Positions 3,844 through 29,419 of a stretch of DNA of 64,000 bases are shown in pieces; the stretch's first letter is position 1, and every line of letters begins with the position of its first letter. Source of the stretch: an uncultured delta proteobacterium. GTDB taxonomy: Bacteria; Desulfobacterota; Binatia; UBA9968. The notes under the pieces are model-generated. The model was not told where the DNA came from, ran no database searches, and saw only the letters and a list, made by a program, of their open reading frames with translations. Position numbers and translations under genes: made by a program. The DNA is taken from assembly GCA_963727625.1 (NCBI GenBank), contig CAVSHR010000004.1, positions 1,376,001-1,440,000 on the forward strand, given 5' to 3'.

Positions 3844-3876
3844 ATTGCGATCCTCCCTTCGAGCGGAATCAATTTG

Positions 3877-5016
3877 TCAGGCGAATACTCGCAAGCGAGT
3901 CGCGCCGCCGCTTAGGTCCTGATACAGCGCGATGGTCGCCGCGGCCATCCGATCGGCGCTGAAATACCGCCGCACCCGCTCGCCGGCCCGCTGCGCCAGC
4001 CGCTGTCGTCGCACCGGCTCGCGCGCCAGCCGAGCCAGCGCGTCGGCAAACGCGGCGGGTTGGCCGGGCTCGACGAGCAATGCCGATTCATCGTGCACGG
4101 CGATTTCCGTCAAGGGCGCGACTCGGCTCGCGACGATCGGTTTGCCGGCCGCCATGGCTTCGACCATGACCTGGCCGAACCCTTCCGAGCAGGTCGCAAA
4201 CGCGAACACGTCGAGGGCGGCGAGAAACGCGCCGATGTCGCTTTGAAAACCGACCAGGCTCACCCGATCGCCGACTCTGGAATCGCGAATCTGCCGGCGC
4301 AACTCGGCGCCGTAGCCCCAGGGATCATGGCCGGCGATCAATAACTGCGCGTCGGCAACTTGGCGCAGGATTTCGGGCATCGCTCGGATCAAAATCTGGT
4401 GGCCCTTGCGCGGCTCGAGCCGTCCGATCGAGCCGATGACGAACCTTCCATCGAGCCGCCAACCTTGACGCAGGTCGATGCGCGCGCCGGACAACCTTTC
4501 GGTGTCGATGCCGTAGTGAATGACCGCGGCGCGCTCGGGCGGCAGGCCAGCCCCGATCAGCCAATCGCAAACCGCATGGGAGATGCACAGGATCCGATCG
4601 GCGCGGCGCCAGAGCCTGTGCATCAACGGCAAACTCCACCGCGCCGACCAATCGACGCTGTAAACCGCGTGCACCGAGCTCACCCAGACGATCGACGGCC
4701 GGCGATATTTGACGAACGCGCCGGCCATGTCGGCGCGCGGCAGATGGGTATGGAGAATGTCCGGCTGTTCCGCGGCGACCAACCGCATGACTCGACCGAA
4801 AAAGCGCGAGTCATAGCGCCCCGCCGCACCGAGGTCAGCAACGCGAACACCCGACGCTTCAAAGTCGCGCCGCAGCGAGCGGCTGCCGACGACTCGCTCG
4901 CGCAAACAAGCGACGACCGGGTCAACGCCGCGGTCGCGCAGATGGCGGCACAGGGTGAGCAGATGCAATTCAGCGCCGCCGGCGGAAAGGGTATTGATCA
5001 GGTGAAGAACTTTCAT
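3877..5016 (-). CDS. Glycosyltransferase family 4
   Basis: Starts MKVLHLINTLSAGGAE; has the SEGFGQVMVEAMA motif. Confidence 0.9.
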   Translation of the reverse strand: MKVLHLINTLSAGGAELHLLTLCRHLRDRGVDPVVACLRERVVGSRSLRRDFEASGVRVADLGAAGRYDSRFFGRVMRLVAAEQPDILHTHLPRADMAGAFVKYRRPSIVWVSSVHAVYSVDWSARWSLPLMHRLWRRADRILCISHAVCDWLIGAGLPPERAAVIHYGIDTERLSGARIDLRQGWRLDGRFVIGSIGRLEPRKGHQILIRAMPEILRQVADAQLLIAGHDPWGYGAELRRQIRDSRVGDRVSLVGFQSDIGAFLAALDVFAFATCSEGFGQVMVEAMAAGKPIVASRVAPLTEIAVHDESALLVEPGQPAAFADALARLAREPVRRQRLAQRAGERVRRYFSADRMAAATIALYQDLSGGATRLRVFA

Positions 5017-26681: not shown

Positions 26682-27181
26682 CTCAGTTCAACCGGCTCCC
26701 TATGATGTTTTAATGGTCAATCGTGCGGATCTTTTGCAAGTACCCATAACCGCTGGCAAGTAAATCCGAAGTGTCCTAAGAGTTATCTAGTGTAGACTGT
26801 TGGATCTGTTTCGGTTGCTACCAGAGCGACCAAAACGCGGCTTAGCGTATAGCGTTTTATCCCTCAAAGCTGAATAGCGATCAAGTCGCGGCGATAGCGC
26901 CGAAGTTACGCCAAGGGGATAAAACGTGTTGGACTAAACTGCGGAGCAGCGCCCAAGTTGCGGCTATGGGGATTTTAATGAGGCAGAGGCGTCACGGCGC
27001 CAGGTTCTGGATGATACGAGGGCATCATCGCAATGGCGATGGGGTGTTGCAAAATTCCAACGTTGGAGATGGCCCGCTGGAAACAGAGCGTTGCGTATCG
27101 TTTTTCGCGTTTGCGGATACACCCGTCCATGCGACTGGCGAGGTCCAGAGACAAACCAGATGAAACTCGACGAAGCTTTGT

Positions 27182-28351
27182 TCATGAAGAATCCCAATAA
27201 CGCAGGTTGGGCGTCGCCGGCAGTTCGCCGACGGTGATCATGATTCCCTCATGGCAGCACGGGCAGCGCGAAAGATCGACGCCGGTGATCTTAAGCAGCA
27301 AGTCTTTGGCTGAAAGAACGGGGGATTGCGGCAACGCCGGATCGATTTCGAGCAGTTTACGGCACTGAGCCAGCACCTGTTTTTTGGATCGGTTAGCCAG
27401 AATGCCGAAGTGACGGATGCGCATGAAACCATCGGGCAGGACGTGGAGCAGGAAGCGGCGGATAAACTCTTGGGCCTCCAAGGTTATCGTTTTCTTGCGA
27501 TCGCCGTCTTTGCGATCCCGGTAGTTCAGAGTGACCTGGCCCTGATCGGTAGCGAGAATCCGATCGTTGGAGAGCGCTACCCGGTGGGTGTAGCGGCCCA
27601 GATAGTCGAGCACGGATTGTGGAGAGCCGAACGGCTTTTTGGCGTAGACGACCCAGTCCCTGTGGTACGGGAGCTGGATATGGTTGTCGAGGGGATCAAT
27701 TTTTCCTCGTCGACGAGCCCGTCCTAACAGGTCTAAGAACTTACCCCGAAACACCCGGCTCAGGGCCTTGACCGGAAACAGAAAGTTCTTACGTGCCGCG
27801 ATCCAACGATTTCGATCGATAGACAGAGCGCCAGCGGGAACCAGACAGTGCAGATGAAAATGATCCTTGAGGGTTTGGTCCCAGGTGTGCAGAACAGCAA
27901 TGACCCCCAGAGTTCCACCCAGACGGCTTTTACCGAAATCCAGCAACGTTTCGCTGACCGCTTTGAACAAAAGACTCAGGACGATTTTCTTATGAGCAAG
28001 AATCAGCCGGTTAAATTCATGGGGCAAGGTGAAAACCAGGTGGAAGTATCCCACCGGCAAAAGCTCAGAGGTTTGCTTCTCCAACCACTGGGCTTTGGCC
28101 AGCGACTGGCACTTGGGGCAGTGGCGGTTGCGACAGGAGTTGTAAGCCGGGCGCTCAAAGCCGCAGGCATCGCAGCGATCCAAGTGGCCGCCGAGTTCTT
28201 GAGTTCGGCAGACCGTCACAGCGCGGATCACCTTGTGCTCAGCAGCCGACACCCGATGGGTTTGCTCGAAGCGCGCCCCGTACTGACGAAAGATATCGGC
28301 CAACTCGGGGCGTGTTGTTTTCTCTCCTGCCGCCAGCTTGGCCAGCGACAT
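27182..28351 (-). CDS. IS91-family (Y2 HUH) transposase
   Basis: Zinc-binding YNSCRNRHCPKC, HLVFTLP, HUH in HFHLHCLV, Y2 motif YLGRY, and RFLLHVLPDGF. Confidence 0.93.
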   Translation of the reverse strand: MSLAKLAAGEKTTRPELADIFRQYGARFEQTHRVSAAEHKVIRAVTVCRTQELGGHLDRCDACGFERPAYNSCRNRHCPKCQSLAKAQWLEKQTSELLPVGYFHLVFTLPHEFNRLILAHKKIVLSLLFKAVSETLLDFGKSRLGGTLGVIAVLHTWDQTLKDHFHLHCLVPAGALSIDRNRWIAARKNFLFPVKALSRVFRGKFLDLLGRARRRGKIDPLDNHIQLPYHRDWVVYAKKPFGSPQSVLDYLGRYTHRVALSNDRILATDQGQVTLNYRDRKDGDRKKTITLEAQEFIRRFLLHVLPDGFMRIRHFGILANRSKKQVLAQCRKLLEIDPALPQSPVLSAKDLLLKITGVDLSRCPCCHEGIMITVGELPATPNLRYWDSS

Positions 28352-28363
28352 GGCGATTCCCCG

Positions 28364-29212
28364 TTAAAGCGGGGCGTCGCGCAGATCGAGCAAGTCCAGG
28401 GGACTGGCGGTGGCACCGAGCTTGGGCTGGCGAATCTGCAAATAGCGCTGGGTACTCTGAAGCGAGTTATGACCCAACAGCGTCTTGATGGTCACTAAGT
28501 CCACGCCACCTTCCAAAAGATGGGTGGCAAAACAATGTCGCAGCGTATGAATGCCTTTGCCTTTTTCAACCCCGCTTTTGTGCTTGGCGAGATTGTAGAC
28601 TTTCTGCGCGGCGGTGATGTGTAGGGGATCATTTCTGGTTTTACCAAAGAAGACCTACATCACGGGTTGATACGTTTGCTTGTATCTCTTCAGTTCCGCC
28701 AAAAGCCTCTTGGAGAGAATCGTGTAACGGTCCTTTTTCCCTTTGCCCTGTTCGACCCGGATCATCATCCGTTCGCAATCGATATCGCTGAGTTTGAGAT
28801 GGATTAGCTCCGTGACTCGCAGTCCGGCCGAGTATGCTGTCATCAGCAAACAGCGATCACGCAATTTGACGGCGGCTTGCAGCAATCGCTCGACCTCTCT
28901 GGGGCTTAACACTTCCGGTAAACGCCAGGTCCGTTTCCTTCGTGGCAAGAAGAACTGTTCTCGGCTCCATCCCAAAACTTGTTGATAGAAAAATCGGAGC
29001 GCCGAAATATTGACGTTCAGCGAACTACTCGACAAACCCCGCTCCTGCAAATGCAACAGATACGTCCGGATTTGGTCCTGGGTCAGCTGATCCGGGAACT
29101 GCCGATAATGCTTAGCTAACCCGACCATCGCGGCCAGGTAAGACTTCTGCGTCCTCGCCGCGAAGTTGCGCAGCTTCATCTCCGCAACCATCTTCTCTCG
29201 TAGTGCTCCCAT
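28364..29212 (-). pseudogene. Tyrosine recombinase interrupted by an in-frame TAG
   Basis: YSAGLRVTE...VEQGKGKKDR precedes TAG at 28657-28655. The same frame continues VFFGK...[36 protein letters not shown] to TAA at 28364. Confidence 0.88.
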
Positions 29213-29419
29213 AAAAACCCTCCTGGATTTAAGATGGGAGCGACGCTATCACGCAAATTGTGAAGACTGGCAGTGGCCTGACTTGATGGGAACTAATGCG
29301 AAAAACAAATGCAGATCAGGGCAGAAAACTTCGCACGGTATCCGCCACCGCGCAGCGGTTTAGTTCAACATTTTTTGGCGAAGGCGGATTCACAGCCCAA
29401 AGAATTGTTGTGCATGCTC

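Follow-up and report, generated by a model that had tools for sequence, protein, structure and literature searches.

We examined a 64,000-nt stretch of DNA from an uncultured delta proteobacterium (Binatia, UBA9968; assembly GCA_963727625.1, contig CAVSHR010000004.1, positions 1,376,001 to 1,440,000), called the window below, and in it a putative IS91-family insertion sequence that encodes a tyrosine recombinase and a transposase. Coordinates are positions in the window unless a contig is named, and motifs and genes are read on the minus strand. The source genome (G000) has 15 contigs, with the window copy on contig C4, and it contains a second copy of equal length on another contig (C9:505194-507720), referred to here as copy 2. 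The features of the window copy, in the order in which they are read, are the following.

29370..29413, minus strand: the "left hairpin" of the initial annotation; flank of the window insertion, absent beside copy 2.
29366..29369, minus strand: left junction tetranucleotide GTTG, shared by 26 of 30 junctions in the family and by 56 of 77 from metagenomes.
29345..29365, minus strand: left (terIS-side) end, AACTAAACCGC and then a small palindrome, ACCGC-TGC-GCGGT (5 bp); common to copy 2 from 29365 inward.
28364..29212, minus strand: tyrosine recombinase gene of 282 codons, broken by a TAG (Pfam Phage_integrase).
27182..28351, minus strand: IS91-family Y2 HUH transposase gene, 389 aa, intact (Pfam Y2_Tnp and Zn_Tnp_IS91).
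26928..26942, minus strand: inner inverted copy of the left end, GCAGTTTAGTCCAAC, ending in the CAAC box (GTCCAAC, RYYYAAC-like) at the hairpin foot; the block is invariant in 22 of 22 relatives.
26853..26926, minus strand: long oriIS-side hairpin with arms at 26926-26916 (CGTTTTATCCC) and 26863-26853 (GGGATAAAACG) and a variable interior of about 50 nt (fold z -2.16).
26847..26852, minus strand: spacer CTATAC, the usual oriIS terminus of IS91-type elements, which does not vary in the close family.
26839..26846, minus strand: GCT+AAGCC (GTT+AGGCC in copy 2), the junction trinucleotide and a GTTRRRY-like remainder, where two of the three mismatches between the copies over the last ~290 nt fall.

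The two copies have in common the block from 29365 to 26839 (2,527 bp), in which they differ at 75 positions (97% identity), and they show no likeness outside it, the flanks being unrelated. An upstream open reading frame stops with TAA at 29422-29420. Drawing the limits from the two-copy comparison, we first placed them at 29365..26839 and counted GTTAGGCC as internal to the element; this was rejected, because relatives, close copies included, part ways from the fourth position of the right junction (+4) onward and two of the last three differences between the copies lie within those seven nucleotides. On the same evidence, the divergence from +4 and the clustering of copy differences in the final seven bases, the element proper runs from the G at 29366 to CTATAC(GTT) at 26847/26844, and what follows the junction trinucleotide at 26839..26846 is probably derived from the target. 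This gives a left junction of GTT|G-AACTAAACCGC and a right junction of hairpin-CTATAC-GTT|(A/C)G(G/A)C. The left GTT is either shared with the target or counted as the terIS tetranucleotide, and the invariant part of the element starts with the G that follows. The right (oriIS-side) end consists, in order, of the 15-nt inverted copy of the left end, the long hairpin, the 6-nt spacer CTATAC and GTT.

The initial annotation, which saw here an element built like an integron cassette with attC-like hairpins at both ends, had its motifs in the right places on the minus strand (GCACAAC at 29413-29407, GTTGAAC at 29369-29363, GTCCAAC at 26934-26928, and arms at 26926-26916 and 26863-26853). Its left hairpin, however, is not part of the element: the match with copy 2 starts at 29365, beyond which the left flank of copy 2 is unrelated, and the left 51-nt stretch folds as single-stranded DNA at chance level (-5.8 kcal/mol, z -0.68, with 48 of 200 shuffles at least equal), so that only one of the two proposed hairpins belongs to the insertion. 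The supposed decayed distal core, GCTAAGC at 26846-26840, is GTTAGGC in copy 2, a perfect GTTRRRY. An inverted repeat between the ends does exist: GTTGAACTAAACCGC (29369-29355) agrees with reverse-complemented GCAGTTTAGTCCAAC (26942-26928) in 13 of 15 bases in the window copy and in 14 of 15 in the family consensus, rather than in the 14 of 16 originally given. The proposed layout of RYYYAAC, hairpin and GTTRRRY is likewise present, supplied by the right end together with the left junction of the element.

The first gene product is predicted to be an Xer/IntI-like tyrosine recombinase (Pfam Phage_integrase, 1.8e-35, and Phage_int_SAM_4). Its frame, 29212-28364, contains an in-frame TAG at 28657-28655, where copy 2 has TGG and an open frame. 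As copy 2 carries TGG at the same codon, the TAG is a nonsense mutation, and we rejected the alternative that it is read as an amino acid; the window copy is decaying and copy 2 is intact. The recombinase falls below the cut-offs of the models for XerA (183 bits against 220, NF040815), XerC (160 against 335), XerD (158 against 330) and the integron integrase (TIGR02249, 156 against 265, in two stretches). The nearest structures by sequence are XerA (4a8e, 6.3e-39) and then IntI4 (2a3v), on which recombinase residues 12-176 align with chain positions 13-179 and residues 195-273 with 240-318. The two stretches skip the IntI-specific insertion, 18 residues standing where IntI4 has about 60, and this bears out the original impression that the insertion is lacking. 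Passages of one preprint (bioRxiv 10.1101/542381) assign recombinases from IS91 elements to an "Integron-like" subgroup, the closest homologues of IntI and without its insertion.

The second gene product is an IS91 transposase by the following models: Pfam Y2_Tnp (PF04986, 4e-57), Zn_Tnp_IS91 (PF14319, 1.3e-32, an N-terminal zinc-binding domain) and NCBIfam transpos_IS91 (NF033538, 443.9 bits against a cut-off of 125). Its translation contains what we take to be the HLH and YLGRY motifs. The recombinase stop lies 12 nt ahead of the transposase (tnpA) start on the same strand, and with Pfam and NCBIfam in agreement the unit of tyrosine recombinase and IS91 Y2 transposase stands as first annotated. 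The recombinase is probably an accessory protein of the element.

The closest named counterpart is ISAzo26 (the RefSeq name), on plasmid 2 of Aromatoleum aromaticum EbN1 (NC_006824). Like the window element, it has a tyrosine recombinase gene followed by an IS91 transposase gene, a left end of GTTGGACTAAACCGC and a palindrome, and a right end of GCGGTTCAGTCCAAC, a hairpin and a 6-nt spacer, in this case CTCTGC. It differs in its recombinase (about 44% identical), in its hairpin sequence, in a right junction of ATT rather than GTT, and in host phylum. ISfinder lists several IS91-family members with an integrase gene, and the window element is a newly found member of an already catalogued subgroup, the gene pair being present in ISAzo26 and ISShvi3. 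Our main reading, to which we give a probability of about 0.78, is that window positions 29369..26839 (minus strand) are one of two IS91-family insertion sequences of about 2.52 kb in this genome, belonging to the ISAzo26-like subgroup.

Related elements are widespread. We found 34 related loci in metagenome-assembled genomes (MAGs) labelled Binatia, "delta proteobacterium", Syntrophobacter and others, and the recombinase precedes the transposase in all of these except L015 and L034-L038 (L029 is ambiguous). The same arrangement, with the recombinase directly upstream of tnpA on the same strand, occurs in L062, L063 and L072-L077. Recombinase relatives at about 44-46% identity are present on 449 plasmid records, and six of eight further plasmid matches, sampled across the ranking, carry the gene pair. 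In metagenome contigs, the 21-nt motif of the left end occurs in at least 120 stretches, 80 of which were obtained as loci; most of those with enough downstream sequence hold both genes, at 40-55% identity to the window copy. The left end, AACTAAACCGC with its palindrome, is nearly invariant across 30 family loci and recurs in ISAzo26 and in a copy from an Escherichia coli integron discussed below; across the subgroup, the left end GTTG(A/G)ACTAAACCGC and the inner repeat GCGGTTYAGTCCAAC are present in all of the elements compared. Signs of mobility are the unrelated flanks of the two G000 copies and 77 different flanks among the metagenome loci. Derivatives of about 450-510 bp that retain both ends (L035, at 3857-4369, 508 bp; L103; L116; L119) look like non-autonomous elements of the miniature inverted-repeat transposable element type.

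IS91, IS801, IS1294 and IS1294b share with the window element a Y2 HUH transposase, the lack of long terminal inverted repeats and of any obvious target duplication, a palindromic oriIS followed by a tetranucleotide of the G/C-T-T/C type, and a terIS with its own tetranucleotide and palindrome. Unlike it, they have no recombinase, and in IS91 that position is taken by orf121. We saw no strong inverted repeat in IS91 and IS1294, the best being 10 of 12, although their left ends were placed from element lengths and are unreliable. The target of the window family, GTT(A/C)G(G/A)C, is also longer than the four bases of the canonical IS91 group. Parts of a published account of IS91, IS801 and IS1294 (PMC13181058) place the target tetranucleotide against the palindrome-bearing oriIS and the tetranucleotide of terIS beside its palindrome, and describe a single-stranded oriIS-terIS circle as the functional insertion intermediate. 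The window element has the same layout, with hairpin-CTATAC-GTTN on the right and GTTG plus palindrome on the left. Moreover, the CTATAC-GTNN arrangement recurs in an IS1294-type copy that has no recombinase and terminates in ...CCTATAC|GTCC, and because of this shared terminus the HUH transposase alone can explain the geometry of the junctions.

The right end of the element is a terminal module of about 105 nt that is retained in 22 of 22 aligned relatives; it closes 21 of the related elements, one of these, L035, being an internally deleted derivative. Across the 22 modules, GCGGTTTAGTCCAAC, both stem arms and CTATAC-GTT are nearly invariant, while the interior of about 50 nt varies. RNAalifold keeps an 11-bp stem in 22 of 22 and predicts 17 pairs, with one compensatory pair in two sequences, and the window module itself folds at -17 kcal/mol (z -2.16; 4 of 200 shuffles equally good). 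In more distant relatives the stem pairing persists while the sequence changes, giving 20 distinct 5' arms. Of 50 elements, 38 have a hairpin of 9 bp or more no further than 3 nt from the box, as do 84 of 1000 positions drawn at random (8.4%). L106 and L127 were false matches and were disregarded. The right hairpin of the initial annotation is real.

Two modules also occur on their own. Partly decayed copies of about 100 nt with no transposase nearby lie at C5:231640-231743 (L003) and C5:58426-58525 (L004), and a footprint, an abortive event or a mini-element are candidate sources. The hairpin interior carries a conserved ACTTGATTGC (26880-26856, minus strand) with GATAAA 17 nt further on, which resembles an outward-facing promoter; sections of PMC6218425 report outward-facing promoters in ISCR1. 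We found no Rfam match for the right module, for its solo copies, or for the 200-nt repeat described next.

The junctions point to a preferred sequence. Left junctions in the close family (n=30) are GTTG in 26 cases, TTTG in two, GGTG in one and ACAC in one (copy 2). Right junctions after CTATAC (n=25) are GTTA in 14, GTTG in four, GTTC in three, GCTA in two, GTTT in one and GATT in one, so that GTTN follows hairpin-CTATAC in 22 of 25; the first base is G in all 25, while the left -4 base is variable. Among 77 metagenome left junctions, the base next to AAC (position -1) is always G, and the trinucleotide is GTT in 56, GAA in eight and ATT in seven, with six others. Right junctions were parsed in 44 elements, two of them wrongly (L112, and a false repeat match in L136). 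Beyond the right GTT, +4 is A in 24, C in 11, G in six and T in two; +5 is G in 31 of 43; +6 is G in 23 and A in 10; and +7 is C in 30 of 43. With GTT to its left and (A/C)G(G/A)C to its right, the element thus lands at GTT(A/C)G(G/A)C-like sites, which overlap GTTRRRY and are not identical to it.

Among these sites are the ends of other repeats; some relatives have landed at the R' core of an integron attC. Many of the copies in related MAGs sit at the 3' end of a repeat of about 200 nt ending ...CACTTAATA GTTAGGCC, and this repeat occurs 11 times in G000 without the element (C9:503030-503231, C2:110085-110275, C4:1357170-1357358 and eight more). It forms the left flank of L005, L008-L010, L012, L015, L016, L019 and L026. 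It also carries a sigma-70-like TTGACA-17 nt-GATATT; since related copies lie exactly at its 3' end, the predicted promoter would read into the recombinase gene.

The attC case is clearest in E. coli plasmid pM216_AC2, where a class 1 integron carries the gene pair with the aac(6')-IIa cassette on one side and the aadA4 cassette on the other. Its junctions are ...TTAATTCAGGT|GTTGAACTAAACCGC... and ...GCTGATC|GTTAGGCATC (CAGGT|GTTGAAC..IS..CTGATC|GTTAGGC, then aadA4). The unoccupied attC of aac(6')-IIa reads ...TTAATTCAGGT GTTAGAT (CAGGT GTTAGAT), which places the insertion exactly at the cassette boundary. Other attC-looking landing sites are those of L030, L110 and L141.

A short box stands directly 5' of the hairpin foot, at the end of the 15-nt inverted left-end copy. 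Of the 44 parsed elements, 39 have CAAC as the box. Its sequence complements the junction trinucleotide and co-varies with it, in the following combinations.

Box CAAC, left GTT, right GTT: 31 of 44 parsed elements.
Box CAAT, left ATT, right ATT: L090, L072 and L112 (L112 read by eye).
Box CTTC, left GAA, right GAA: L134 and L087.
Box CTTC, left GAA, right AAA: L122.

Because three separate sites change together, the box is likely to pair with the trinucleotide at the cut sites. Even if the recombinase takes no part, IS91-type elements may read both the cut and the target trinucleotide by pairing with the box at the hairpin foot. The arrangement resembles the R''/R' pairing of attC and the pairing of guide and cleavage site in IS608. 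IS200/IS605 elements such as IS608 likewise have a short box 5' of the foot of a subterminal hairpin, complementary to the cleavage or target site and co-varying with it, a guide-sequence rule set out in portions of PMC3201880 and PMC5934647. They differ in having a Y1 rather than a Y2 transposase, the two families being unrelated, and in the window family the pairing is inferred from sequence only. In a literature search that left paper supplements aside, we found no stated mechanism for the IS91 recombinase, none tying it to attC-like folding, and no guide-type recognition or pairing rule in IS91.

By analogy with IS91, the most likely course of movement is that the transposase would nick beside the GTT at the hairpin end and release a single-stranded circle in which CTATAC-GTT is joined to GAAC..., and the circle would be re-inserted next to a GTT. 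The cut site would be read by pairing with the AAC box, much as in the guide sequences of IS200/IS605.

A number of observations weigh against this picture of an IS91-type element guided by its box. Few subfamilies carry the covariation (a single clade with GAA and two or three cases of ATT), and three ATT-type elements (L093, L063 and L073) keep CAAC. In elements with unlike left and right trinucleotides, neither side consistently matches the box; an attempt to use these elements to place the cut inside GTT gave inconsistent answers and was dropped. Cuts of the IS91 type (5' of GTT), the integron type (G|TT) and the IS608 type (3' of GTT) all fit the shared trinucleotide. The left junction of copy 2, CACAC|AAC (ACAC in place of GTTG; L002 1490-1503, C9:~505190), is without the otherwise invariant G, the single exception among 107 left junctions. 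A search with both flanks in 40 relatives gave diverged gene matches only, none bridging the junction, and the relatives are too diverged to provide an orthologous empty site. Four soil read runs, of 24 listed, contained only relatives at 90-95%, with no empty-site or circle joint; two small skips in the reads had short sides. Lastly, the recombinase is conserved and intact in most copies, yet the model that we favor assigns it no role.

Two other explanations would give it one. In the first, which we consider unlikely, the recombinase is an Xer-like housekeeping accessory that resolves tandem or multimeric products, or double-stranded circles, at the arms of the inverted repeat and takes no part in target choice. 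Its best matches are indeed of the XerA/XerC/XerD type (4a8e at 6.3e-39; NF040815 at 183 bits), and head-to-tail copies do occur. L151, on a metagenome contig, is such a pair with the junction ...CTCTGC-GTT-GAACTAAACC, as would arise at a circle junction or if one copy had landed at the end of the other, and the right end is duplicated terminally in L023 and L131. We recognised no dif-like site (two arms with a 6-8 bp centre) in duplex form, however, and the arms are about 90 bp apart.

The second is somewhat more doubtful and is close to the proposal with which the locus was first annotated. The circle made by the transposase of this subgroup would be a self-mobilising cassette whose joined ends fold in an attC-like manner, with a 15-bp R box (GTTGAAC/GTCCAAC), a 1-by-6-nt spacer and an L-box hairpin; the IntI-related recombinase would recombine that fold with GTTRRRY-type sites. 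Such an element could enter integron arrays, and the subgroup would tie IS91-type rolling-circle transposons, as a living link, to the origin of the IntI/attC system of integrons. The affinities of the recombinase are consistent with this, as described in the preprint cited above and as our own alignment agrees, and the E. coli relative is in the exact position of a cassette. The attC-looking sites of L030, L110 and L141, the invariant first G of the right junction (25 of 25) beside a variable left -4 base, which fits a G|TT crossover, and the 15-nt inverted repeat, which we did not find in the recombinase-less IS1294 and IS91 (with the reservation about left ends given above), point the same way. 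Set against these, the recombinase-less IS1294 has the same CTATAC-GTNN end, ISAzo26 with left GTT and right ATT is better explained by a cut 5' of the tetranucleotide than by G|TT, and a box-to-stem spacing of 1 and 6 nt is unlike that of attC sites.

Landing sites overall are also not attC-like. The junction GTT was paired with an upstream AAC in the best fold at 6 of 53 sites, as it was at 43 of 600 GTTG sites taken as controls (Fisher p 0.27); the mean fold energy of the landing sites was -17.5 kcal/mol, against -15.4 for the controls (p 0.09); and RYYYAAC occurred within 110 nt upstream in only 2 of 18 rebuilt landing sites. An attC is only one of many GTT-type landing sites, and most targets are not attC.

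Nor does the window copy reside in an integron array as far as its surroundings indicate: its neighbors are not cassette-like, and the nearest intI on the contig is about 1.03 Mb away, whereas the pM216_AC2 relative does lie in an array. The earlier statement that no intI is nearby holds for the window, but a true integron integrase (TIGR02249, 468 bits against the cut-off of 265) is encoded on the same contig at C4:370957-371898. A crude scan shows one attC-like site of 100 nt (GTCTAAC...GTTAGAC) at C4:366303-366402, 4.5 kb from that gene.

The cassette-like reading is supported in part, in its anatomy, with the boundary anatomy and the pM216_AC2 copy in its favor and the left hairpin, now a flank, and the mostly non-attC landing sites against it. 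At the right end of the window element, GTCCAAC, a hairpin and GTTAGGC (in copy 2) follow one another as RYYYAAC-like box, hairpin and GTTRRRY do in attC; of the 7 positions in the R boxes, 5 pair when the element is integrated and 6 with GTTGAAC, at spacings of 1 and 6 nt. The recombinase is related to IntI, and the boundaries of the pM216_AC2 copy coincide with the G|TT cassette boundary. Unlike cassettes, the window element has two genes, including its own mobility genes, a conserved stem sequence and an asymmetric spacer (1 against 6 nt); it does not stand in an array beside intI, and its recombinase is without the IntI insertion and scores 156 bits against 265. The IS1111-attC group and the group IIC-attC introns also land in attC, as some relatives of the window element do, with different enzymes; both groups are mentioned in parts of PMC9229058, together with an IS91-like ISShvi3 adjoining attC.

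It is scarcely credible that an ordinary insertion sequence carries these hairpins and core-like motifs by chance, without structural role: the left hairpin is at chance level and short motifs such as GTTRRRY are common, but the frequency of the right hairpin (38 of 50 elements, with 20 arm sequences, against 8.4% for random positions) and the covariation of box and junction trinucleotides already contradict this for the right end.

Taken by itself, the window element is an ordinary, partly dead insertion sequence. The family to which our main reading assigns it is notable in that its recombinase is among the closest known relatives of integron integrases and its ends mimic cassette boundaries, and in that a clinical class 1 integron holds at least one relative as a "cassette" flanked by resistance cassettes. 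The chemistry of IS91-type transposition is still poorly defined, and a box that co-varies with both junction trinucleotides offers a hypothesis, testable by mutation, on how such elements pick their cut and landing sites. It also raises the question of whether IS91-type site choice could be reprogrammed.

L132, on a metagenome contig, has the identical 21-nt left end, carries about 1.3 kb of other cargo behind it, and ends in what looks like a true attC, GTCCAAC-TACCC-GTTGAAGCCGC...GCGGCTTAAC-TAAAC-GTTAGGC. Distant relatives of the recombinase occur without an IS91 transposase in L079 (a Bacteroides ovatus plasmid) and L078 (an Acinetobacter indicus plasmid); one of the two heads a run of immunity-type genes (SMI1/KNR4, Imm26), and the other is shortened and lies beside tet(X3) and a copy of ISVsa3. 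In the window element, the stretch of about 240 nt between the transposase stop and the right module (26964-27197, minus strand) holds a 77-codon frame and a motif, AATCCCCATAGCC, that is also found in ISAzo26. Spacers in the wider family include CTATTC, CTGATC and CTCTGC in place of CTATAC.

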